Source: a virus
Taxonomy: Duplodnaviria > Caudoviricetes
Length of the DNA stretch: 64,000 nt
Reading direction: 5' to 3' (one strand)
IMG/VR virus record: IMGVR_UViG_3300034061_004620
Within the stretch, counting starts at the first letter, position 1; each line of letters starts with the position of its first letter. The notes under the pieces are model-generated. The model made no database searches, was not told where the DNA came from, and worked only from the letters and a program-made list of their open reading frames with translations. This document shows, one piece after another, positions 32,171 to 53,677 of the stretch. The position numbers were made by a program, and so were the translations under genes.

Positions 32171-32195
32171 CATAGATTAGAATTGTAGTACAATG

Positions 32196-32545
32196 CCTAA
32201 GAAGAAAGATCGGACAAGACCCGGGGGCGGTACCCGGCCGGTCCACCAAAAAGCATTTTGCCCGATGATATAACGAGCCACCACGGTAAGTATGCGAAAG
32301 CTGATAAGAGTGGAATAGGCAGACGAGGTTAGCGATTCCTCGTTGTATCGGAGAGGGACACCTTGAAAATGCTTTTTGATGGGCCGGAAATAGTATCGAT
32401 TGACGAGCAAGTATTCAAAGGATCTACACGGTAGGCGATCTCCGTAAAAGAAGCAAAACTATAACTGCAAACGCAGCTAACGACGAGGTCTTCGCTCTCG
32501 CAGCGTAATCTCCGGGGCAACTATGCCTTGTTACCCAAAATAGTT
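32196..32545 (+). ncRNA. ssrA: Circularly permuted (two-piece) tmRNA
   Basis: The 3' tRNA-like half CCGGG-GGCGGTA-CCCGG-CCGGTCC-A-CCA ends at 32248. The 5' half GGGCCGG starts at 32381 (G3:U70). Tag frame 32467-32508 reads ANAANDEVFALAA* after ATAACT. Confidence 0.92.
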
Positions 32546-42162: not shown

Positions 42163-43377
42163 ATGTATAAACTTGAACAAAACGACAAAATTGGCTTTTA
42201 TACAGTAGGACAAAAAAAATTCTACGGTAAAGTCGAAGCTCTAATTGAAGCCACCAAAACAGGAATATTTCCTAATTGGCATTTCAATCCTGAGGTATAC
42301 AATAATATAGATTGGACTATTGAACCATCTGTTCCTTTGAAAGAGTTATACAAGTTACGGGCACAGCAATTACGAAACAAGTATGACTGGATAAGAGTTG
42401 AAGCATCAGGAGGTGGTGATAGCACAACCGCCATTCTTAGTTTTTTACAAAATGGAATACATTTGGATGAAGTAGTTTTTCGTTATCCCAAGACCGGTGA
42501 CAAAAATGTACACGGCGATCCGTATAATACAAAATGTGAAAATACTTTGAGTGAATGGGACTTTGCTGCCAAACCACTTTTAAATTGGATAGCTACTCAC
42601 TATCCAAGAGTTAAACTCACCATGCATGACTATGCAGAAGACATGCTCAACAAAACTTACGAAGAAGACTGGGTATTTAAATCCAAGGATTATTTTTTAC
42701 CAAGTCATCCGTTCAAGCATGACAATGTTGCATTTATTGACCATAGAAAACAGGCAGAAAAGGGATATAGAATTGCAGTGTTGTATGGTATAGATAAACC
42801 AAGACTTTGCATCAAAGACGGTAAATGGTTTTTGTATTTCATGGATCTACAGACCAATCACAGTAACAGTGTGATGTACGAATATGATAACATTACCAAC
42901 GAGTATTTCTATTGGTCACCGGACTTTCCAGAAGTAGTGCGTAAACAAGCTCACATAATTAAAAACTGGTTCATGATGCCACAAAACCAAGCACTACAGT
43001 ACATTGTAAAATGGCCAAATAACAGTATTGCAAGTAGAACCACTTATGAACAAATGGTAAAACCAATTATATATCCAGATTATGATCCGGCGACGTTTCA
43101 GACTATTAAACCTACAAATAGTTTCTATAATGAAATGGATTATTGGTTTTATGTCAATTTTAAAGAAACTAAGTCTTATCAAATTTGGAAGGCAGGACTA
43201 CAGTTTTTAGTTGACAATATTGATGAAAAATATACCTATAAGGAAATGGGACAACCAATGGGTTTTGTTGGCTTTCTTAGTCCTTTCTATTACTTAGGCC
43301 CAGCATCGTATGTTGACACTGGTGTTAACAATTTTGCAAGATTTGAGATTCCGCCGGTTGAACACAAAGCAGAATGA
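42163..43377 (+). CDS. PP-loop/N-type ATP pyrophosphatase-like protein
   Basis: ASGGGDS PP-loop; EYFYWSPDFPE; GIDKP. Confidence 0.55.
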   Translation: MYKLEQNDKIGFYTVGQKKFYGKVEALIEATKTGIFPNWHFNPEVYNNIDWTIEPSVPLKELYKLRAQQLRNKYDWIRVEASGGGDSTTAILSFLQNGIHLDEVVFRYPKTGDKNVHGDPYNTKCENTLSEWDFAAKPLLNWIATHYPRVKLTMHDYAEDMLNKTYEEDWVFKSKDYFLPSHPFKHDNVAFIDHRKQAEKGYRIAVLYGIDKPRLCIKDGKWFLYFMDLQTNHSNSVMYEYDNITNEYFYWSPDFPEVVRKQAHIIKNWFMMPQNQALQYIVKWPNNSIASRTTYEQMVKPIIYPDYDPATFQTIKPTNSFYNEMDYWFYVNFKETKSYQIWKAGLQFLVDNIDEKYTYKEMGQPMGFVGFLSPFYYLGPASYVDTGVNNFARFEIPPVEHKAE

Positions 43378-43403
43378 ATTTAATCATTTTATTCAAGCAA
43401 TGA

Positions 43404-43432
43404 TTGACAACAATGATAAATAAATATACAAT
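43404..43432 (+). promoter_or_regulatory. Consensus sigma70 promoter driving the leader/tRNA operon
   Basis: TTGACA (43404) -17 nt- TACAAT (43427). Confidence 0.85.
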
Positions 43433-43439
43433 AGAGACT

Positions 43440-43559
43440 ATGATGAACTCAACACTATTACATAAATCGTTTAAATCACAACCCGAATCAGGCCTAATAG
43501 CCTATTGGGTGATTACACGCGATATTAGTAATCGTGCCCTGGGGAAATATAGAACCTAA
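43440..43559 (+). CDS. Putative attenuator leader peptide (39 aa)
   Basis: MMNSTLLHKSFKSQPESGLIAYWVITRDISNRALGKYRT*; its 3' end overlaps the antiterminator arm. Confidence 0.65.
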   Translation: MMNSTLLHKSFKSQPESGLIAYWVITRDISNRALGKYRT

Positions 43560-43616
43560 GTTTAATTACCAAATTCTATAAAACCCCAGGACTCAAAACC
43601 CTGGGGTTTTTGTTTT
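43538..43616 (+). promoter_or_regulatory. Mutually exclusive antiterminator/terminator (attenuator)
   Basis: Terminator AAAACCCCAGG (43580-90)/CCTGGGGTTTT (43600-10) plus U-tract. Antiterminator CCTGGGG-aaa-TATAGAA (43538-54)/TTCTATA-aaa-CCCCAGG (43574-90). Confidence 0.8.
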
Positions 43617-43628
43617 ATAAAGGAAGAA

Positions 43629-43793
43629 ATGACAAACGAACAAGATATACTGTCGTTTCAAAAGAAGTTAGAAGAGCGTAATTTTGTTTTTAGCGATAGG
43701 TTACTTGAACAGTTAGTTAAAAGTAAAATGGAAAGACTGCGTCAACAAATTGAAGATGCAGAACAAATGCGCCGTCTAACTAAACGACGCTAA
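43629..43793 (+). CDS. Small coiled-coil hypothetical protein, first gene after the attenuator
   Basis: RBS AAGGAAG; MTNEQDILSFQKKLEERNFVFSDRLLEQLVKSKMERLRQQIEDAEQMRRLTKRR. Confidence 0.65.
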   Translation: MTNEQDILSFQKKLEERNFVFSDRLLEQLVKSKMERLRQQIEDAEQMRRLTKRR

Positions 43794-43794
43794 A

Positions 43795-44038
43795 AAGTGC
43801 AATGCGGAACGAGGCCGCGGCAGCACTCAAACTTGCCAAACGGGCGGAGCCCTGGATGAAACTGTCGGCGAAAACGCAGGAGTAAAATAGGAATGATAAA
43901 GCACATTCAAACACATAATGGCGGCCGGCGTCATGGATTACTGTTACGAGGATCCAAGAATGTGTTTTATCATGCATCCTTGATGAACAGAAGGTCTTGT
44001 AAACTATTCCTACCTAATAATTTTAGGAACAAGGATGC
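43795..44038 (+). ncRNA. Structured non-coding segment (consecutive stem-loops)
   Basis: ATGATAAAGCACATTC/GAATGTGTTTTATCAT (43893-43973), GCATCCTTG/CAAGGATGC (43974-44038), and GC-rich hairpins upstream. Confidence 0.5.
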
Positions 44039-44048
44039 GCTAAATTAT

Positions 44049-44143
44049 GGTAGGCAGCATTGGTATGCGGCGGAGTCTTATAAGCTCTGGAGACTGGTCA
44101 GATGGGCTGGAACGACAGGGTTCGAATCCCTGGCCTACTACCA
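44049..44143 (+). tRNA. tRNA-Ile(UAU), atypical with a long extra arm
   Basis: GGTAGGC/GCCTACT-A-CCA, loop CTTATAA, TTCGAAT T-loop, ~26-nt variable region. Confidence 0.75.
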
Positions 44144-44149
44144 TACAAA

Positions 44150-44224
44150 GCGGGTATAGCACAGTGGTAGTGCGACACGTTGCCAACGTGTAGGTCGTCA
44201 GTTCGAATCTGACTATCCGCTCCA
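44150..44224 (+). tRNA. tRNA-Gly(GCC)
   Basis: Cloverleaf, loop TTGCCAA, CCA end. Confidence 0.93.
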
Positions 44225-44432
44225 TAACACAGAAAGGTTGACTAAAATGGGGCTTTGATTGTATTATTATTCATTATTGGAATGTTGGTGTGGTTAGATA
44301 AAAATTTTAAATAGGAGATCCTGTTATGGACAGTGACAAGAGTGACAAACGAGGTTTACTAAGATATGGTTGGACATATGAAAACAAGCACAAGCTTGCA
44401 GCATTGATGTGGCAACTGTACGGAGTAAGAAT

Positions 44433-44509
44433 GGGTGCGTAACTCAACTGGTTAGAGTAATCGGCTTTTAACCGATAAGTTGTGAGTTCGAGTCTCACCG
44501 CACCTACCA
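44433..44509 (+). tRNA. tRNA-Lys(UUU)
   Basis: Loop CTTTTAA, CCA end. Confidence 0.95.
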
Positions 44510-44575
44510 TATAAAAACACATTGATTGTCCCACAGAGGCCATTACTAATATCTGCACAGTGTGTTTTTATATGG
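44507..44575 (+). repeat. Long stem-loop starting at the tRNA-Lys CCA
   Basis: CCATATAAAAACACAT pairs with GTGTGTTTTTATATGG. Confidence 0.8.
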
Positions 44576-44590
44576 TTAAAGGAGATTGAT

Positions 44591-44740
44591 ATGCCAATGT
44601 ATGAAACCACAGTTCGTACACCGTCGGGTGATGTAAAAGACCGTGTATACGCAAAGGATTTACAAGAAGCCCGTGTACTTTTTGAACAGCGTCACGGGCC
44701 AAGGAATGTTCCTTACATTCCTAAAGTAATACCAAGTTAA
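44591..44740 (+). CDS. Small hypothetical protein within the tRNA array
   Basis: AAGGAG RBS; MPMYETTVRTPSG... Confidence 0.65.
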   Translation: MPMYETTVRTPSGDVKDRVYAKDLQEARVLFEQRHGPRNVPYIPKVIPS

Positions 44741-44741
44741 T

Positions 44742-44817
44742 TGGGGGTTAGCTCAGTTGGTAGAGCAGCGGATTTTGATTCCGCGTGTCACAGGTTCAAC
44801 TCCTGTACCCCTTACCA
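44742..44817 (+). tRNA. tRNA-Gln(UUG)
   Basis: Loop TTTTGAT, CCA end. Confidence 0.92.
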
Positions 44818-44823
44818 AACAAT

Positions 44824-44898
44824 GGTGTCCGTAGTGTAGAGGCAACACCCAAGATTGTGGATCTTGTATCACCGGTTCGATCCCGGTCGGATACCCCA
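44824..44898 (+). tRNA. tRNA-His(GUG)
   Basis: Loop TTGTGGA; G-1:C73; CCA end. Confidence 0.92.
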
Positions 44899-44899
44899 T

Positions 44900-44975
44900 G
44901 CTGCTTTAGCTGATGTGGTCATAGCGGCGGTTTGAAGAGCCGTTGAACTTGGTTCGATTCCAAGAGGCAGCACCA
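44900..44975 (+). tRNA. tRNA-Phe(GAA)
   Basis: Loop TTGAAGA, CCA end. Confidence 0.93.
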
Positions 44976-44977
44976 AA

Positions 44978-45052
44978 CGGTCCTTAGCTCAGCGGAAGAG
45001 TTCTGGTCTTCGAAACCAGCTGTCGGCAGTTCGAATCTGTCAGGACCGGCCA
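44978..45052 (+). tRNA. tRNA-Arg(UCG)
   Basis: Loop CTTCGAA, CCA end. Confidence 0.92.
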
Positions 45053-45061
45053 GTAAATTAT

Positions 45062-45136
45062 ACCCGAGTAGCTCAGTGGTAGAGCACATTCTTGATAAGG
45101 ATGGGGTCGGTGGATCGTTCCCACCCTCGGGTACCA
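45062..45136 (+). tRNA. tRNA-Ile(GAU)
   Basis: Loop TTGATAA, CCA end. Confidence 0.92.
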
Positions 45137-45140
45137 TCAT

Positions 45141-45216
45141 GGTAGAGTAGCATAGCGGCAAATGCAGCACCTTCATACGGTGCCCATCGTCAGTTCGAGT
45201 CTGACCTCTACTACCA
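45141..45216 (+). tRNA. tRNA-Met(CAU), probably elongator
   Basis: Loop TTCATAC, paired 1:72, CCA end. Confidence 0.85.
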
Positions 45217-45234
45217 GTTAACAAAATAGCAACT

Positions 45235-45294
45235 TGTTGCTTTTTTAATAACAAAAATAAAAGAGTTGACCAAAAAGACCCATTTTGCTATACT
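45235..45294 (+). promoter_or_regulatory. Early promoter module
   Basis: TGTTGC-N7-ATAACA; TTGACC (45266) -17- TATACT (45289). Drives ORF 45323..45595. Confidence 0.8.
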
Positions 45295-45666
45295 ATGGTT
45301 TGTTACTTGCAAAGGAGACAACATGGCCCAGCAGCGTATGAAAGCCCAATCAACTCGCGATTGGGGCGCAGATTTTGCGTACTATGTAGGTGAAGATTCA
45401 GATGGCCGCACTGACACCTATGTGTTTGATTACAAGCCAAATCGCAAGTTGGATGCATACGACAATTATCGCCAGTGTGTGGATCAATATTTCTCGGGTG
45501 CAAGTGAAACACTTGGTTTTCCTTGCAGTCGCGATCTTGCGGCCAAATTGGGTTGCACTGAACAAGATATAGATGATTGGTTGTGCGGCTGTTGACCTGA
45601 ATTAGACAATTATGTATAATAATGAAATAGTGCAGTAAACGTTCATTAACAATCAAGCAACAAAGT

Positions 45667-45750
45667 GCCTCGGTGGTGTAATGGTAGCCACGCTGGTCTT
45701 AGAAGCCAGTGCTGAAAGGCGTGTCAGTTCGAGTCTGACCCGAGGCACCA
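45667..45750 (+). tRNA. tRNA-Leu(UAG)
   Basis: Loop CTTAGAA, variable arm, CCA end. Confidence 0.93.
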
Positions 45751-45846
45751 TATAAAAACACTCTAAACTGGACGCAGGATCGGAGAAGGTTGAAAGCGGA
45801 TTAGCTACCGCAAAGTAAACTGGAGATCAAGAGTGTTTTTGTATGG
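45748..45846 (+). repeat. Long stem-loop starting at the tRNA-Leu CCA
   Basis: CCATATAAAAACACTCT pairs with AGAGTGTTTTTGTATGG; inner GCGG/CCGC hairpin. Confidence 0.8.
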
Positions 45847-46089
45847 ATGTTAAACTTACAAGGAACAACAATTATGGAATATTTTTTCAGTTTCTTACTT
45901 GCATTGGCCATTTTTAGTTTTCCATTCTTGTTAACTTTATGGTTGGTTAGAAAGACTACATTCACAAAACAGGCTGTATTATTTCTGTTTTTGTTAATAC
46001 TTCCGTTTGGTTTTGCTGCGTGGGCTTTTTGTTCCATAATGTATTATTACATAAAATATTCAGCTTCAGGCGATCGTGTGCCTGAATAA

Positions 46090-46354
46090 AGTGTTAAGGG
46101 AAGTGGAGAGAAAAAGTCTCAGAGACAGATTGCTCCTACTTTTAAATGACCATGTGAGGCGCCCTAAGATTCCGGTTACCACTTTCCTGAAAGTGGCGTG
46201 TGGTGCACGAGAAAATCCAGGTGGCTCGGGCACCTTTAGCGAGGCAACCCCTCAGACAACCGAGCAGCGTGAACACTACGCGGCAAAGTCCTTTAGTGTT
46301 CGGACAGGGCAACACCTCAGCTTGGGGGCGACCGTGGAAAAGCGTGGCCCAAGC
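46090..46354 (+). ncRNA. Unknown structured ncRNA, copy A (candidate GOLLD/ROOL-class relative)
   Basis: GC-rich multi-hairpin segment; GGTGCACGAGAAAATCCAGGT and CGGACAGGGCAACACCTCAG are shared with 52091-52290. 5' boundary approximate. Confidence 0.65.
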
Positions 46355-46494
46355 AATTATATTGAAGCACATTTCTGTCATTGCCGTGCCAACTTCACGG
46401 TGAGTACAAGAGTACGGGAGTAGCTACCCGACAGGGTGTACAAAGTTACAAGAGGGTTAATGACAGCCCCTTGGGAGTGTGTTTCAATATAATT
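46355..46494 (+). repeat. Long stem-loop element before tRNA-Arg
   Basis: AATTATATTGAAGCACATT pairs with AGTGTGTTTCAATATAATT; inner TGTCATT/AATGACA. Confidence 0.75.
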
Positions 46495-46495
46495 T

Positions 46496-46570
46496 GCCTC
46501 TGTCGTTCAACGGATAGGATACGAGTCTACGAAACTTGTGATGGTGGTTCGATTCCATCCGGGGGCACCA
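46496..46570 (+). tRNA. tRNA-Arg(ACG)
   Basis: Loop CTACGAA, CCA end. Confidence 0.92.
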
Positions 46571-46577
46571 AAGTTAT

Positions 46578-46652
46578 GCACCATTCGTCTATCGGTTAGG
46601 ACTCAAGGTTTTCATCCTTGCAAGAGCGGTTCGACTCCGCTATGGTGTACCA
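46578..46652 (+). tRNA. tRNA-Glu(UUC)
   Basis: Loop TTTTCAT, CCA end. Confidence 0.94.
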
Positions 46653-46916
46653 TATAAATACAAGCATGAAAGAACTGCTCCGTATGCTACCACAAATTTT
46701 GGGTGCTATGCCCGAAATTGTCAAGTACCTAAAATATATCCCCATACTTATGGTATTAGGGGGCATTGGATATGGAGCGTTTTATTATATGGAAAATCAC
46801 AAAGATCCATATATCTGTGTAAACAATCATGTTTTCGAACAAATACGCATAGATTCCGACATATATGTATTCAAAGGCGGAACTTGCGTTGATTCTAAAG
46901 ATATAAAAGAATAATT

Positions 46917-46990
46917 GGGGGATTGATGTAAAGGGAGCCTGGGGCCTTTGCAAGGCCTTCGTAACAGTTCGATTCTGTTATCCTCCACCA
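46917..46990 (+). tRNA. tRNA-Ala(UGC)
   Basis: Loop TTTGCAA; G3:U70; CCA end. Confidence 0.9.
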
Positions 46991-46999
46991 ATGTTTAAT

Positions 47000-47084
47000 G
47001 GGGATGCGGCTAAGTTAGAGAGTGGCGGCTGACTGTAAATCAGTTCTTTCGGGTGAGTAGGTGCGAATCCTTCCATCCCCACCA
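47000..47084 (+). tRNA. tRNA-Tyr(GUA)
   Basis: Loop CTGTAAA, variable arm, CCA end. Confidence 0.92.
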
Positions 47085-47383
47085 ATAAGGAGTAGTATGG
47101 TTATATATCGTGTACCGCATGCATACTTAAACGACTACCAGATGATTGGTCAGCGACTACAAGTTCTTATGGACATGAAACGCAAGGATATTGATCATCA
47201 AGAACAGTTAGAGTTAGCAAAATTGTTAGCTATTCAAGAAGCACATAGGTTGCTACGAAACTATAACTACAATAAGGATACAGAATTTCTAAGACAATAT
47301 GCTTACGGCGAAAGTATTCGTGAACAAAGATTAGTTCAACGTGCAAGTGCAGTAGGATTACATATAGATAGATATATTTAATT

Positions 47384-47458
47384 GGGCGGTTAGCTCAGTG
47401 GTAGAGCAGGGCCCTTACAAGGCCAAGGTCGGGAGTTCGACCCTCTCACCGCCCACCA
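47384..47458 (+). tRNA. tRNA-Val(UAC)
   Basis: Loop CTTACAA, CCA end. Confidence 0.94.
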
Positions 47459-47465
47459 AGTTTAT

Positions 47466-47540
47466 TCCAGAGTAGCTCAGCGGCAGAGCAGGAGACTGTT
47501 AATCTCTTGGTCGGTGGTTCGATCCCACCCTCTGGAGCCA
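47466..47540 (+). tRNA. tRNA-Asn(GUU)
   Basis: Loop CTGTTAA, CCA end. Confidence 0.95.
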
Positions 47541-47546
47541 GTAGTA

Positions 47547-47621
47547 GGTCTCAAAGTGTTCATGGACGCACATCAGCCTGTCACGCTGAAAGAAGGGGAT
47601 CGTTACCCCTTGGGACCGCCA
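47547..47621 (+). tRNA. tRNA-Asp(GUC)
   Basis: Loop CTGTCAC, CCA end. Confidence 0.9.
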
Positions 47622-47631
47622 ACTTTTTAAT

Positions 47632-47706
47632 GCGGGTGTAACTCAGTGGTAGAGTGTCAGCCTTCCAAGCTGTTCGTCGCAGGTTCGATCCCTGTCACCC
47701 GCTCCA
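47632..47706 (+). tRNA. tRNA-Gly(UCC)
   Basis: Loop CTTCCAA, CCA end. Confidence 0.95.
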
Positions 47707-47712
47707 AATTTC

Positions 47713-47832
47713 TATTGCTTTTAAGCAATATTGTTATTCTTGCAACATTTGTTGCTATTCTTGCAACAAAATATTTTGGTAGACCATAATTCGCCATTTT
47801 GCTATAATAGATGTATAGTGAATAACAAGGAG
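47713..47832 (+). promoter_or_regulatory. Early promoter module with three inverted-repeat boxes
   Basis: TATTGC-N6-GCAATA, TGTTAT..GCAACA, TGTTGC-N7-GCAACA; TAGACC (47780) -17- TATAAT (47803). Confidence 0.85.
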
Positions 47833-47837
47833 CCAAA

Positions 47838-48626
47838 ATGAAGCTGCTAATTACTACTCAAGTTTACGAAAACTATGGCGCCCACGATTGGGACGGCAAG
47901 GGCGAGTGCCCGCAATACTGGAAAGCCAAGGGTGGCAACGACTATGTGGTCAAGAATTTTAAGGGTAAAGATGTTACCATGGCAGTTATGGCGTTGCGTG
48001 ACAAGATCGAAGAAGACAGCCCGTACTTCCGCGAGCACATCGTTGACTTTAACATTGTAGCCGATGACTACCTCACCGAATTCGAGCGGGATCAGCTGGA
48101 GTTTGATGGCAGCATCACCTACCCTGCTCGTGAACTTGAATTAGCCTAAGGAGACCAGTATGTCCAAGAAACATTTTGAATCGTTGGCCAAATATGTTCG
48201 TGCTATCATGGATCCGCATGCCAGACTGCAGGCTGCTTGTGCAGTGGCATCATCCTGTGCAGAAATGAATCCACGATTTGATACCCAGAAATTTTTTGAA
48301 GCTTGCGGTGTGTAAAATAAATGAATAAACTTGTTCGTGATGATTCGGTAGCAATAATAGTTTCTCCAGGGCACGGAGCCGGTTGGTATTCATGGCACGG
48401 TATTGAAGAATTGCTATTTGATCCCAGTATTGTGGCCTGGATTGAATCCAACGAACGTGATAAGATTGAGCACTATCTCGCACTGAAATATCCTGATGAA
48501 TATTTTGGAGACCTCGAAAAATTATCGATTCGATGGATAACCAAAGGTACAGCGTTTAAAATTGACGAGTACGATGGATCAGAATCCATCGAGTATAGAG
48601 ATAAACAAGAGTGGCTTATAGCATAG
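47838..48626 (+). other. Three early hypothetical ORFs (47838..48149, ~48160, 48321..48626)
   Basis: RBS-preceded; YENYGAHDWDG...WKAKGG and SPGHGAGWYSW...YDGSESI are recurrent phage patterns. Confidence 0.7.
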
Positions 48627-48639
48627 AAAGGAGAGCAAA

Positions 48640-49242
48640 ATGCCAGCAGTATTTTTAGTCAGCGACACTCACTTTGGTCATGCTGGCGTTTGCCGTTTCA
48701 TGCGGAACGACGGGGTGACCAAACTGCGTCCTTGGGATAATCCCGAAGAAATGGACGAGTTCATGATCAAAGCATGGAACGAACGTGTACGTCCAAACGA
48801 CAAAGTGTATCACCTGGGCGATGTTGTTATTAACCGTAGAGCAATGAGTACACTGGCACGTCTTAATGGTGACAAGGTGCTTATACGTGGTAACCACGAT
48901 ATCTTCCGTGATGACGAATATAGACAGTACTTTCGTGAACTACGTGCATACCATGTCATGAACGGAATGATACTGAGTCATATTCCTATTCATGAAGACA
49001 GTCTGGGTAGATTTGGTACCAACATACACGGGCACCTTCATGCTAACCGTGTAATGAAACGTGCCAGCAGTACTGCCGAGTTCATGGAGTGGGGTGTACG
49101 AGAACGTATTGATCCGCGCTATCATTGTGTATGCGTAGAACAAACAGACTTTGCTCCTATACTGTTTGAGGATGCAATCAAACGCATCGTGGAGGAAGGT
49201 GGTACAATAGGCTTTAAGAACGGTAACGGTCCTACAATGTAA
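48640..49242 (+). CDS. Calcineurin-like metallophosphoesterase
   Basis: SDTHFGH, HLGDV, RGNHD, LSHIP, HGHLH. Confidence 0.92.
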   Translation: MPAVFLVSDTHFGHAGVCRFMRNDGVTKLRPWDNPEEMDEFMIKAWNERVRPNDKVYHLGDVVINRRAMSTLARLNGDKVLIRGNHDIFRDDEYRQYFRELRAYHVMNGMILSHIPIHEDSLGRFGTNIHGHLHANRVMKRASSTAEFMEWGVRERIDPRYHCVCVEQTDFAPILFEDAIKRIVEEGGTIGFKNGNGPTM

Positions 49243-49285
49243 TTGTTGACAGGACCGTTACCAACATATATAATAGCAACATAAT

Positions 49286-49373
49286 GGAGAGTTGGCCGAG
49301 TGGTTAAGGCAGCAGTTTGCTAAACTGTCGTTGGGAAACCGACGCATAGGTTCGAATCCTATACTCTCCGCCA
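49286..49373 (+). tRNA. tRNA-Ser(GCU)
   Basis: Loop TTGCTAA, long variable arm, CCA end. Confidence 0.95.
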
Positions 49374-49379
49374 AGTTAG

Positions 49380-49453
49380 GCCCTTTTAGTATAATGGTAA
49401 TACAGTGGATTTGTAATCCTCTGATGGCAGTTCGATTCTGTCAAGGGGCACCA
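49380..49453 (+). tRNA. tRNA-Thr(UGU)
   Basis: Loop TTTGTAA, CCA end. Confidence 0.93.
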
Positions 49454-49700
49454 AAAGGATAATATATGGCACGATTTAGTGATGAAACGCAACAAGTGAT
49501 TGATAGGTTAATGAATTTGCAAGAATTTACTGTAAGTATACCTGTCGAAGAAAATTGGATGCCTAATGGTGTTGTGCCATTTGATATACGAATAAAAAAC
49601 GGATTAGCAACCGTAAGTGTGCCGGCCTTGACAGAAGATGAGGCTCGTAGTAAAATAATAGCATATTTTAACGGTAGTGATCAAGAGGATTAAAAATTAT

Positions 49701-49779
49701 CCGGGTGTAGCTTAGTCTGGCTTAAAGCGCCTGCTTTGGGAGCAGGAGATCGTGAGTTCGAATCCCACTTCCCGGACCA
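49701..49779 (+). tRNA. tRNA-Pro(UGG)
   Basis: Loop TTTGGGA, CCA end. Confidence 0.93.
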
Positions 49780-49788
49780 AGAGATATT

Positions 49789-49873
49789 GCGACTGTGGTG
49801 AAACAGGTATACACAGCAGACTTAAAATCTGCCGCTGCAAGGCGTGCCGGTTCGATTCCGGCCAGTCGCACCA
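49789..49873 (+). tRNA. tRNA-Leu(UAA)
   Basis: Loop CTTAAAA, variable arm, CCA end. Confidence 0.95.
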
Positions 49874-49880
49874 AGTTTCT

Positions 49881-49958
49881 GGGCCTTTAGCTCATGGTGG
49901 TTAGAGCATCCGACTCATAATCGGGTGGCGGTTGGTTCGACTCCAACAAGGCCCACCA
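49881..49958 (+). tRNA. tRNA(CAU), probably Ile2 (lysidine-modified)
   Basis: Loop CTCATAA; the body resembles bacterial tRNA-Ile2 (GGGCC..TAGCTCA..GGTTAGAGCA..CGACTCATAATCG). Confidence 0.8.
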
Positions 49959-49966
49959 AGTTGTAT

Positions 49967-50041
49967 CTGGCGTTAGTATAATGGATAATACAGGGGATTT
50001 CTACTCCCTTAATGTGGGTTCGATCCCTGCACGCCGGACCA
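49967..50041 (+). tRNA. tRNA-Arg(UCU)
   Basis: Stem GGGGA/TCCCT, loop TTTCTAC, CCA end. Confidence 0.9.
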
Positions 50042-50400
50042 GATTGACTAAAATTCAACTGTTGTGTTATAATGTTGTATTATTTAGGGAGACAACTGTG
50101 AATTTAAATGACATATTGGGTACGCCAATTGAAGTAGGTTCAACAGTGATTACTTGTCATAACAATAGAATAATTTTAGGGCGAATTATTGAGGTGTTTG
50201 AAAATTCGTATAGCGTCAAAGTAGAACCTATACAGTCCGACACAGCCGGGCGGCGACCGGTACCCAAAATGAAGCCGTTTCGTCGTGGTGAATATAATGT
50301 TTTTGTGGTAAATGACCAAGAATTATTTATAAGCACCCTCAAAGGTTATGCTCATAACACTGGCGAGTTTGATGATGAGGAAGAATTAGAAGATTAATAT

Positions 50401-50478
50401 GCACTGGTACCAGAGTGGCCTAATGGCGGGGTCTGCAAAACCTTCGATTCGCTGGTTCAAATCCAGCCCAGTGCTCCA
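50401..50478 (+). tRNA. tRNA-Cys(GCA)
   Basis: Loop CTGCAAA, U73, CCA end. Confidence 0.92.
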
Positions 50479-50725
50479 TAAATATTTGCATGTTAGTGGA
50501 TTGGCACCGATTCCCTTATCATGCAATCATTCCTTGGCCCAATCATGAATATCAACAAGATTGGGTCAACAGTCTACTTGTAGTAGAGGATTGGTTGAAA
50601 CAATGTGTTGGCGCAAGATATACAACTTGGGCCTATGCGGATTGTGCTGTTCTTTACAATATAGGTGTAGCATTTAAATGGGATCAAGATCGAACATTGT
50701 TTGTTATGACTTGGTCCAAATGATT

Positions 50726-50815
50726 GGAAGTGTGGCAGAGTCCGGTTTATTGCACCTGTCTTGAAAACAGACGAACCAAAAGGTTCCGTGAGTTCGAATC
50801 TCACCGCTTCCGCCA
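50726..50815 (+). tRNA. tRNA-Ser(UGA)
   Basis: Loop CTTGAAA, long variable arm, CCA end. Confidence 0.95.
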
Positions 50816-51149
50816 AAATAGTAGTTGACACAAATACAAACCTCATGTAAAATATGAAGTACATTAACTAATTAGGAGTTGTAATGAGTATTCAAACAAG
50901 AGCAATTCTTCGTACATTGGGAATGATCGCTATTGCAGCATTAGGTCCTATTGCAGTAGTGGCACTGTTTCAGCTTGATGGAGAAACTCTTTTTAATTTA
51001 TTCATACTTACAATCTTTGCTTGGATGATCTGGGTTATATATTCTATCAACCTCAGTCAGCTGGAAACTGAAGAAAAAGTTCGTGAGATGCAAGAACGTA
51101 GAGAATTGATGATTTCTAATGTAGTTAAAGATCCAGAGTAAAGGTATAC

Positions 51150-51223
51150 CCGGGAGTAGTATAGTGGTAGTACAGCAGCCTCCAAATCTGCCTGTGGGAG
51201 TTCGATTCTCTCCTCCCGGGCCA
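51150..51223 (+). tRNA. tRNA-Trp(CCA)
   Basis: Loop CTCCAAA, CCA end. Confidence 0.92.
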
Positions 51224-51721
51224 CTATAAAATTTTATTTGATTTGCGTCTGTTTTCACTGATAGTAAGGTATTGCAAATTAGATAAACAATGCAGTCCGC
51301 CCTTACTTATCGGAATAATATGATCTACTTCGTATCCAACAGCACAATTTAAATAAAAATCTTGTAATGCTTTAATATCAACATCGTTAGGAGTTTGATT
51401 TTTGCGTTTAGCCATGTAACGGTGCCAAGCCTCGTTATGTACTGATAAGCTTCGGATATATTTTTCTTCTTCTGTAAGTTTTAGGCGACGGGGATTACAT
51501 GCATCGGAACAATAGACTGGACGGGCTGTTTCGATACCGCATGTTTTACAAGGTTTAACAGTGCTATATCTTGATTCAGGTTTAGAATGTCGTCTAAGAC
51601 CTGTATTGTTAAAAGTAGCAGAACAAGATCGAGAACAAAATTTCTTTTGATCTTTACGAGTAAGTTCGGCTTGACAATTTAGGCATTTCATAGTATTATT
51701 TATGAATGGTTGTGGTTCCAA
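51224..51721 (-). mobile_element. HNH homing endonuclease inserted antisense in the tRNA array
   Basis: CxxC zinc modules (CLNC, FCSRSC, YCSDAC); YEVDHIIPISKGGLHCLSNLQYLTISENRRKSN. Stop codon abuts the tRNA-Trp CCA. Confidence 0.88.
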
Positions 51722-52013
51722 TTCACTTTTATTTTACAGGAGCGTAGTATGATCAAGTATTTTCGAGTAAGTATTCCTTTTTTGGTAGTTGTGTTGGCGA
51801 TCATAAACGGATTGACAGCACTTGGTTCTGATAACATGCCAGCATTTTATGCCAATATTACAGCACTATGTGGTTGGCTTGCTATTTCTTATGACGAATA
51901 CGTGACTTTTCGTTTGAACAGGAGTCGTGATGTTTCCAATACCCCTGCGTGAAATACCTTATTATATCAAATGGCGTTTTAAACAACTGTTAAAACGATT
52001 TAAATAAATCAAT

Positions 52014-52090
52014 GGCGGAGGGGAGAAACGGTTTACTCGTCAGTCTCATAAGCTGAAGACATCAGGTTCGATTCCTGTTCTCCGCAACCA
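52014..52090 (+). tRNA. tRNA-fMet-like (CAU)
   Basis: Loop CTCATAA; unpaired 1:72 (G:A); CCA end. Lacks the three G-C anticodon-stem pairs. Confidence 0.8.
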
Positions 52091-52290
52091 AATCCCGCAG
52101 TCCCTTCTGCGTTATTAAAGGGGGTGGTTGGTGTCACCAAAATGCCAGGGCTCATACGATGACAGCCTCAGAACCCGCTAAATGGGTGCAAGAAAAATCG
52201 TAGGTTTAGCTGGCACAAGCCACAAGGATCGTCAGCGGACAGGGCAACAACTCAGTTCAGGGCCGGAGGGATCCGGTAGCTGAACACCAA
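52091..52290 (+). ncRNA. Unknown structured ncRNA, copy B, ending in ACCA
   Basis: GGTGCAAGAAAAATCGTAGGT and CGGACAGGGCAACAACTCAG, then stem GTTCAG/CTGAAC followed by ACCA. Confidence 0.65.
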
Positions 52291-52692
52291 TTACAGGAGC
52301 CAGATATGAATCGTAATAGTCAATTTAGAAATTGGTTGAGAATTATCTGGTTAGACAATTGTCGTGAGCACGAAGACCACAACGAATTGCCTTATACCTT
52401 ATCGGAATACTGGGCAAGATATAAGTGGTGGCTGCGACGAGAATATCGGTTTCAGAACAAAAAATAAACGAGCTCGGGCTCGTTTTTTATTGACTTAGTT
52501 TGTTAGTTTTATTATACTTTATTGTGAGGTGAATCATGCGTAAACTTGAAAAAATCTACAAGGTTAAGAATCTTAGAACAAGTGAAATATTCACTACCAG
52601 TACTGTGTATGAAAAAGCGATCGACGGTGAACTGTTTATTGGAGTATGGCGGGAGTCAGATCCGCATCGCAGAATAAACTGGATAAGAAAAG

Positions 52693-53677
52693 ATTCCACG
52701 GTAAAAGTCAAATGAGTGTAGCTAACGTAGCCCCGGGTTCAGCAAGTACACTGTCGGTGTTTAGTGTTGGAAGCGGAGGTAGCGGCGGCAATTATACTTG
52801 GGATAACAAAAGCTTGACCGCAGGTACGACCCAGATACAAAGCACACTTCGAGTAGACGGCGATGCTGATTTCAACGGCGACATCCGTGTTCAGGGTCAA
52901 AGTATCACAGAAGCCATTACTAAAATCAACGAACGTCTCAATATCTTGGTACCAAACGAAAAATTAGAAGCGGATTGGTCGGAATTGGCCGAACTGAGAA
53001 TACAGTACGTAGAGCTGGAACAACGGTTGTTGGAAAAGCAAAAAGTATTTGATATACTCAAAAAGTCCGATTAGGTGTAAGATAATCTCTAAATGTACAA
53101 GTGCCTGATACTTGACTGTTTTTGAGCTGTAGGGCCTTTAGTGCAACATCCAACTCGGACCTACATTCTGATTCGGATGTGTAGAAATTTTGAATAGACC
53201 CCTTATGCTTTTGGGGAGTCTCTGTGCTCAAAACAACGATCAATAGCAGCCACATACCGGTCCTTTTTGAATATTTATAGACAACAATGCTTTTTTCTGC
53301 TACAATATATACATGAACACAATCCTTGTACACACTTCTCGAGCATACGAAGCTATCTTATGGGCCAGTAATCAATTTGGTACAGGCGGCTATACGTTGC
53401 AACACACATTTCCAGCTGATATGTATGAATTCAAATTTGAAAGGCCCGAGCAGGCAAGTTTGTTTGCACTGAGGTGGATGTGATTAAGGTTAGAAAAAAT
53501 TGGGACTCTGAGCTGGAGGACAACGAAAAATGGTATCGGCTTACCCAATGGTGTGTTTTAGAATTAGGTATCCCGGGTGAGTCAAGAAATTGGTATTACA
53601 ATACTGATTCTGATTGGATGGATTTCTTTTTCCGTGATCCAAGAGATGCAGAACTTTTTATATTGAAATGGATGTAA
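52693..53677. other. Small hypothetical ORFs (52693..53074 +, 53058..53333 -, 53313..53483 +, 53474..53677 +)
   Basis: The last two belong to the FxL(K/R)W paralog family. Confidence 0.6.

Follow-up and report, generated by a model that had tools for sequence, protein, structure and literature searches.

The window analysed here is a 64,000-nucleotide stretch of phage DNA that contains 28 tRNA genes, all in one orientation, between positions 44049 and 52086 (called by ARAGORN and Rfam). Structured RNAs in phage tRNA islands have been known since the 1970s, from rnaC and rnaD of T4 and later from GOLLD and ROOL, and to our knowledge nobody has explained the function of such RNAs. Two stretches of this array, which a sequence-only reading had singled out as diverged copies of one structured RNA, raise the question of whether they are genes for a non-coding RNA, to which family that RNA belongs and what it might do.

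Two homologous RNA genes in the tRNA array

The first stretch, RNA A, spans positions 46170–46354 on the plus strand (185 nt). The second, RNA B, spans positions from about 52091 to 52286 on the plus strand (∼196 nt) and starts in the AAU linker behind the CCA end of a tRNA-Met. Both are GC-rich, as had been noted, with a GC content of 0.52–0.56 versus approximately 0.35–0.40 for the coding and spacer sequence of the array. The two RNAs share the core CGGACAGGGCAACA(C/A)CTCAG, located at 46301–46320 in RNA A and at 52236–52255 in RNA B. With up to three mismatches, the 20-mer CGGACAGGGCAACANCTCAG has two matches in the 64 kb, where none are expected, and these sole matches are the 19/20-identical cores reported in the sequence-only reading. 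The core is followed in each copy by a perfect closing stem, GCTTGGG/CCCAAGC in RNA A and GTTCAG/CTGAAC in RNA B, and the stems differ in sequence, in agreement with the sequence-only reading.

A covariance model (R1) built from 42 B-type copies only and a covariance model of the 3′ module (R2) were used for scoring. RNA B (209 bits) and RNA A (44 bits, E = 1e-11) were the only R1 matches below E = 1 in a search of the window with filters off. R2 scored RNA A at 51 bits and RNA B at 58 bits. The match of a B-only model to RNA A bears out the view of the two stretches as diverged copies of one RNA. RNA A is a member of type A, with 35 distinct relatives, and RNA B is a member of type B, with 43 distinct relatives. 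From these sequence comparisons, both stretches are judged to be genuine genes for folded non-coding RNAs of roughly 190 bases, and RNA A and RNA B are judged to be homologues encoded by paralogous genes.

The extent of RNA A and two of the proposed resemblances were revised. Copy A had been drawn as 46090–46354. In 11 of the 35 type-A relatives, the RNA opens with UUCCGG right behind a tRNA CCA, and the upstream sequences of the remaining copies are unrelated. Because the relatives with a tRNA directly upstream begin at TTCCGG behind the CCA, positions 46090–46169 (plus strand) lie outside the conserved RNA and form a local spacer, and 46170–46354 is the part of the interval that stands. The motifs GGTGCA..AAAATC..AGGT and GGCAC, which had been listed as ordered motifs common to both copies, occupy positions that are not homologous: the family model pairs A positions 46199–46232 with the P3/PK2 region of RNA B (approximately 52125–52158), not with B positions 52186–52217, and GGTGCA is not kept among A-type relatives. 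RNA B does carry the tRNA-like ACCA end attributed to it, but few B-type relatives share this end, which is evidently a coincidence of this genome.

Distribution and subtypes of the family

The 19-nt core was found in 10 IMG/VR contigs, and a homologous flank of ∼190 nt accompanies it in 10/10. Type-specific patterns and a metagenome scan yielded ∼100 further loci, and a profile search (nhmmer) returned 114 full-length copies, 78 of which are distinct. A gapped core pattern gave at least 120 matches, with further subtypes among them. At least 166 distinct copies of the family occur on contigs from IMG/VR and metagenomes, and its RNAs are 190–230 nt long (185 nt for the type-A RNA here). The contigs that carry family copies reach 365 kb. 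Exactly two copies, one of type A and one of type B, are present in each of three complete jumbo-phage genomes, where the distance between them can reach 165 kb and either strand may carry them, and two other complete genomes of 355 kb have one copy each. The division into types A and B captures only part of the family diversity because other subtypes exist. A third subtype (loci L130, L143, L175, L182, L190 and L191) has a first pseudoknot (PK1) composed of CCGGC/GCCGG and CCUAC/GUAGG and a core that ends with CUCAA.

A search for the 19-nt core in 185,579 prokaryote species (one genome each) gave seven matches, none with a homologous flank; all seven lie inside unrelated coding sequence and are therefore chance matches. 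RNA A, RNA B and a common type-A relative found no match by blastn (distant mode) among 50,697 GenBank phage records. Because none of these records matches, the family is so far confined to uncultured phages.

A chain of three pseudoknots

The body of the family RNA consists of three consecutive H-type pseudoknots, each with the strand order a-b-a′-b′. The nested helices were recovered by RNAalifold, and the pseudoknots were found by reading alignments. In RNA B, PK1 (52096–52122, plus strand) is formed by stem S1 (CGCAG/CUGCG, 52096–52100 with 52107–52111) and stem S2 (CCCUU/AAGGG, 52102–52106 with 52118–52122). The S2 variants include CCCUU/AAGGG, CCCAU/AUGGG, CCCUA/UAGGG, CACUUU/AAAGUG and CUCUUU/AAAGAG. 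The P3 hairpin (UUGGU/GCCAG, 52128–52148, plus strand) contains a conserved ..CACCA.. loop and precedes PK2 (52149–52202, plus strand), which is composed of stem a (GGCU/AGCC, 52149–52152 with 52164–52167) and stem b (UACGAU/AUCGUA, 52155–52160 with 52197–52202) and encloses an inner hairpin (ACCCG/UGGGU, 52173–52187, plus strand). PK3 (52203–52236, plus strand) combines stem a (GGUUU/AAGCC, 52203–52207 with 52217–52221) and stem b (GCUGGC/GUCAGC, 52209–52214 with 52231–52236), and its topology is constant through more than 12 unrelated sequence versions.

In RNA A, a 7-bp hairpin takes the place of PK1. The 5′ leader (46170–46196, plus strand) contains the invariant UUCCGGUUA followed by the hairpin CCACUUU/AAAGUGG (46179–46185 with 46190–46196), the PK1 counterpart, the stem of which covaries from C-G to U-A among relatives. 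A full pseudoknot at this leader is sterically unlikely, given that no linker follows CCUG. PK2 of RNA A (46219–46265, plus strand) is formed by stem a (AGGUG/CACCU, 46219–46223 with 46231–46235) and stem b (GCUCGG/CCGAGC, 46224–46229 with 46260–46265), with an inserted GAGG/CCUC hairpin (46241–46253, plus strand). Stem b occurs in relatives as GCUAUG/CAUAGC, GCUAGG/CCUAGC and GCUGGG/CCCAGC. PK3 of RNA A (46267–46300, plus strand) contains stem c (GCGU/ACGC, 46267–46270 with 46278–46281) and stem d (AACACU/AGUGUU, 46272–46277 with 46295–46300), and its topology is kept in four unrelated sequence versions.

The helices were evaluated by a swap test, in which the longest duplex between the two windows of a stem was compared with that obtained after the 3′ windows were swapped among distinct haplotypes, irrespective of kinship. 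In type B, the test gave 0/1000 shuffles for PK1 S1 and S2, P3, PK2 stems a and b, the inner hairpin, PK3 stem b and both stems of the terminal hairpin H3, and 3/1000 for PK3 stem a. In type A, PK2 stem b and PK3 stem d gave 0/1000, and PK3 stem c gave 2/1000. Across all 166 copies, 10/10 helices were at 0/1000, with kinship again ignored. In an alignment of 79 distinct sequences that was fitted to the model and not corrected for relatedness, 93.9% of the cells were paired versus 73.4% after shuffling (0/500), and compensatory changes were found in 28 of 34 pairs. The covariation score of the same alignment was 0.416, compared with 0.133 for shuffled sequences and at most 0.054 with the partners slid. 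PK2 stem b and the inner hairpin of RNA B are also backed by this alignment. The proposal of a structured RNA had been made to hinge on covariation in homologues, and such covariation is seen in both stems of each pseudoknot (0–3/1000). The three consecutive H-type pseudoknots with both stems covarying, which served as the working definition of the family, are thus present, with the type-A PK1 represented by a hairpin.

A fourth pseudoknot in type B, between GGUG and the CACC of the P3 loop, was considered and rejected; it is unsupported because both sides are nearly invariant and the swap test gave 436/1000. Thermodynamic folding of RNA B alone was no better than that of shuffled sequences (z = 0.06) in a calculation that cannot model pseudoknots.

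An invariant module at the 3′ end

The positions that are invariant in both types fall within the last ∼55 nt. The 3′ module spans 46302–46354 (plus strand) in RNA A, where the core GGACAGGGCAACACCUCAG (46302–46320) leads into the H3 outer stem (46320–46326 with 46348–46354), and 52237–52286 (plus strand) in RNA B, where the core (52237–52255) leads into an outer stem at 52255–52260 with 52280–52285. In RNA B, H3 also contains an inner stem (52263–52267 with 52272–52276), a GGGA loop and a GG/UAG internal loop, and a conserved A follows at 52286. Its elements follow one another as GGAC, small irregular hairpin and terminal hairpin, the last of which contains a GG/U(R)G internal loop; in full, the module reads GGACAG-N-G-N-AAC-NN-CUC, stem, GGGC, hairpin, GU(A/G)GC and returning stem. 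The terminal hairpin consists of two covarying stems that are split by the invariant GG/U(A or G)G loop.

Within the core, positions 7 and 14 covary among the 166 copies (G.A in 103, A.G in 46, U-A in 11 and G-C in 4). Positions 5 and 16 are A-U with one G-C, and positions 8 and 13 are G.A with nine G-C or G.U in the same 166 copies. The small hairpin is composed of A5-U16, G6-C15 and the covarying R7.R14 pair and has the loop G-N-A-A-C-A; this irregular form is favoured because the 7/14, 5/16 and 8/13 pairs fit it. The mini-hairpin proposed by RNAalifold (G6-C17, G7-U16 and G8-C15) is not favoured, since the 7/14 covariation and the 5/16 and 8/13 pairs fit the other register. The window contains no complement to the core of 10 nt or more, and its tRNAs and tmRNA contain none of 8 nt or more.

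Genomic context

The family lies among tRNA genes in almost every case, in the same orientation as the array, and its copies are frequently located directly behind a co-oriented tRNA (33 of the 43 type-B and 11 of the 35 type-A copies), with a median of 11 tRNAs per locus. These copies start 1–6 nt, usually A/U-rich, behind the tRNA CCA, and the upstream tRNA is specific for Met, Thr, Cys, His, Gly, Asp, Glu, Asn or Tyr. In the window, a tRNA-Met(CAT) with CCA (52015–52090, plus strand; Rfam and ARAGORN, the ARAGORN call being 52015–52086) lies immediately 5′ of RNA B, in agreement with the earlier statement that copy B directly follows tRNA-fMet. The 3′ end of this tRNA reads GCA-ACCA; if its CCA is 52088–52090, the tRNA starts at 52014 with an unpaired 1:72 position (G opposite A), a feature that recalls initiator tRNAs.

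The downstream neighbours of the copies are variable and include a 53-aa ORF, a 90-aa ORF, tRNAs or a terminator. Because these neighbours vary, the RNA is not the leader of one gene, and a riboswitch or leader with a dedicated downstream gene was rejected. Within ∼20 nt downstream of many type-B copies lie a Shine-Dalgarno sequence and an ORF. A conserved 90-aa ORF (MQTIRASHILVE...), which we take to resemble parvulin-type peptidyl-prolyl isomerases, begins ∼20 nt after the type-B RNA in loci L001, L004, L103, L108, L111 and L113. The ORF at its place in the window encodes an unrelated 53-aa protein (52306–52467).

A spacer of ∼140 nt between RNA A and tRNA-Arg (46355–46494, plus strand) folds into a long hairpin with a 22-bp helix (46355–46376 with 46473–46494), the arms of which are AATTATATTGAAGCACATTTCT and GGGAGTGTGTTTCAATATAATT. 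This hairpin lies outside the family and is likely a processing element. At least 26 of 160 copies, including copies in other, unrelated phages, have similar long inverted repeats behind them; these repeats may mark double-strand-specific processing sites. The sequence GTGTGTTTCAATAT, located upstream of many copies, was rejected as a promoter, since it forms the 3′ arm of the spacer hairpin in the window. Judging from sigma-70-like promoters and one strong terminator, RNA A and RNA B belong to two polycistronic units that also include tRNAs and small ORFs. RNA B follows the last tRNA in the window and precedes a strong intrinsic terminator by 180 nt.

Comparison with known RNAs

The Rfam search that had been proposed, with GOLLD and ROOL included, matched no family. 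None of the 4227 models of Rfam 15, which cover GOLLD, ROOL, tmRNA, RNase P, Y RNA, riboswitches and self-cleaving ribozymes, matched either copy at E ≤ 10. No gathering-score match to either RNA was obtained in the window, and the RNA copies of 14 further loci had no match at E ≤ 1. The RNAs very probably constitute a real structured RNA family that is not in Rfam. The sequence-only reading had left a choice between a minimal relative of GOLLD or ROOL and a new family, and the second option is, at the level of sequence, the one upheld, for a family that is real, large, structured, without an Rfam 15 match and embedded in tRNA arrays, where copies begin flush with the 3′ ends of upstream tRNAs. 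The family is widespread and in no catalogue searched here. The catalogue of IMG/VR structured RNAs by Fremin et al. (2023) covers RNAs of at most 151 nt (PMC10690425).

The two RNAs are not members of the tRNA set, since neither is among the 28 tRNAs called by ARAGORN and Rfam and the ACCA after RNA B is not conserved. A tmRNA identity was also rejected: the tmRNA models match 32184–32508 only, relatives show a broken or variable frame across the core and H3, and the core is not crossed by a conserved tag-peptide reading frame. H-type pseudoknot chains serve as scaffolds in PK2–PK4 of tmRNA and in the upstream domain of the tobamovirus 3′ UTR, which contains three pseudoknots. The likeness of the present family to these RNAs is architectural only; it has neither a tRNA-like domain nor a tag frame, and the tmRNA of the phage is a separate gene. 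The bacterial Y RNAs YrlA and YrlB occur as paralogous pairs with one common protein-binding module and a second module that differs. Their conserved module is a helix of the 5′ and 3′ ends, whereas that of the present family is located at the 3′ end, and no Rfam Y RNA match was obtained. No Ro/TROVE gene was found in the window ORFs scanned or among the recurring neighbour families. One report connects YrlA and YrlB, together with Ro/Rsr, with the repair of RNA and with tRNA-like elements (PMC4201824).

The T4 species 1 and 2 RNAs (rnaC, 139 nt, and rnaD, 119 nt; AF158101, 70908–71171) are also small and non-coding and lie in a tRNA cluster. In T4 as in the present family, the RNA genes are directly behind a co-oriented tRNA (tRNA-Arg in T4). 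RnaC and rnaD are matured out of tRNA precursor transcripts, and we know of no function assigned to them. This similar situation could be taken to mean that RNA A and RNA B are highly diverged homologues of rnaC and rnaD. Such an origin is highly unlikely: neither R1 nor R2 matches the T4 locus with filters off (E ≤ 10 and E ≤ 1), the tRNA-like GGTTCGAATCC T arm of rnaC is absent from the present family, and the present RNAs differ in their three pseudoknots, their different invariant 3′ module and their length of 185–230 nt. Because neither model matches the T4 locus, rnaC and rnaD are regarded as the nearest analogues and not as relatives.

GOLLD and ROOL are encoded by phages, often near tRNA islands, and contain multiple pseudoknots with no known function (PMC12286853). 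In GOLLD, the 3′ region is conserved whereas the 5′ region varies, and the RNAs of both families are ∼600–800 nt or longer and assemble into homo-oligomeric nanocages (PMC12286853). The present RNAs share their niche in phage DNA beside tRNA islands and, like GOLLD, have a conserved 3′ end and a variable 5′ body; they are approximately one-quarter of that size (∼190 nt). The common niche and the presence of two paralogues in some genomes would be in line with a relationship. Nevertheless, a miniature GOLLD or ROOL homologue, or more loosely an RNA-only multimer that works like them, is very improbable. No match was obtained at E ≤ 10, and the RNA is built as three H-type pseudoknots in a row, so the option of a minimal GOLLD or ROOL relative was not sustained. 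In 14 genome pairs, intermolecular pairing between RNA A and RNA B was limited to invariant short complements (for example, GGUUAC with GUAGCC) without covariation, which speaks against the multimer.

Possible function and competing explanations

The explanation that we propose, to which we assign about an even chance as a whole, is that the window contains two paralogous genes of an uncatalogued non-coding RNA family whose products would be processed with the tRNAs and act in trans. RNA A would be transcribed in an array unit that runs from a promoter-like site at 45592 through tRNA-Leu, an ORF, RNA A and the spacer to tRNA-Arg. RNA B would be transcribed in a unit that runs from a promoter-like site at 51671 through an ORF, tRNA-Met, RNA B and an ORF to a terminator at 52466. 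Both RNAs would be freed by the nucleases that mature the adjoining tRNAs, with cuts in the 1–6-nt A/U-rich linker behind the upstream CCA or in the long flanking spacer hairpins and subsequent trimming to the terminal hairpin. Maturation together with the tRNAs is somewhat more likely than not. The pseudoknot chain would provide a compact scaffold that resists nucleases. The invariant 3′ module would serve as a docking site for one conserved partner, which could be a protein, the ribosome or tRNA-processing machinery, or a second RNA copy, and the type-specific 5′ bodies would confer a second specificity. The RNAs may thereby function as stable decoys or adaptors in trans in translation or tRNA metabolism during infection.

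The near invariance of the 3′ module across subtypes suggests a single conserved binding partner. An identical 3′ module, differing yet conserved 5′ bodies and one or two copies per genome fit a trans-acting docking RNA better than a generic processing spacer, and a partner-binding role in trans is put forward tentatively as a possible function. A more far-reaching and unlikely version makes the family the RNA core of a new machine, either a ribozyme that acts on phage tRNA precursors or a small RNA-only or RNA-protein particle. In the particle version, which is a possibility, RNA A and RNA B would form a hetero-assembly in genomes like this one and dock on the ribosome or tRNA-processing enzymes via the 3′ module. 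If true, the A/B particle would be a compact counterpart of the GOLLD and ROOL nanocages.

The RNA could instead act in cis, as a block in the transcript that insulates the array and directs its processing or protects the downstream RNA. In the latter case, excision of the upstream tRNA would leave a 5′ monophosphate on the downstream RNA, and the pseudoknots would shield this RNA from 5′-end-dependent decay. The flush start of copies behind tRNA CCA ends, the Shine-Dalgarno sequence and ORF ∼20 nt downstream of many type-B copies and the long spacer hairpins that border copies are consistent with such an element. However, genomes with 20–30 tRNAs and many junctions contain only one or two copies, and a tRNA, spacer or terminator, not an ORF, is often downstream. 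Moreover, a stabiliser needs neither a ∼19-nt core that is near-identical across 166 variants nor two conserved subtypes, and a role in cis is considered unlikely. The invariant core inside a pseudoknot-rich fold and the distance of 1–6 nt from tRNA 3′ ends would also suit a putative ribozyme that cleaves itself at the boundary, for example to help form the upstream tRNA 3′ end, or that acts on tRNA precursors. This alternative appears improbable given that no known class was matched (Rfam 15, E ≤ 10) and that a spacer hairpin or ORF, not a tRNA, precedes many copies. Processive antitermination, in which the RNA would bind the elongating polymerase in cis through a long and largely untranslated array, is quite improbable. 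The HK022 put RNA is present in two copies per phage genome and the Bacillus EAR RNA lies within an operon, and the low copy number of the family (one or two per genome) and its place inside long operons with much structured RNA would agree with such a role. The position of RNA B, past the last tRNA of the window and 180 nt ahead of a strong intrinsic terminator, does not agree with it; in addition, no Rfam match was obtained, and the RNA is far more complex than put.

The family is a compact and very well-defined addition to the RNAs of tRNA islands, with at least 166 distinct copies. Compared with the giant RNAs, its members lend themselves much more readily to chemical probing, structure determination and tests for partners or catalysis, and because their small size eases such study, the family could offer a first clue to why large phages combine these RNAs with tRNA sets. 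It is ready for RNA family catalogues and would fill unannotated gaps in many jumbo-phage genomes.

Other features of the array and its neighbourhood

No RNA-binding partner gene was found to recur near the RNA among the families scanned (Metallophos, RNaseH_like PF04308, omega-like Rpb6 and Peptidase_S11), and the other recurring ORF families near the RNA have no Pfam match. The recurrent array ORFs (for example, L111:3515-3823:-, L079:4858-5382:+ and L060:3982-4971:+) encode an omega-like RNA_pol_Rpb6 domain (15 loci), an RNaseH_like domain (PF04308, 21 loci) and a D-Ala-D-Ala carboxypeptidase (20 loci). The window also contains a circularly permuted (two-piece) tmRNA at 32184–32508 (Rfam tmRNA_permuted, 116.9 bits, full length). 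On the plus strand of 43000–53500, 39 near-consensus sigma-70-type promoters were counted versus 24.9 expected, one of them TTGACA-17-TATAAT at 49246–49274, and because of this excess the array probably consists of several transcription units. A gene for a 200-aa calcineurin-like metallophosphoesterase lies within the tRNA array (48640–49242); among 110 related loci, 33 have a member of its ORF family close to the RNA, and the enzyme might heal RNA ends.
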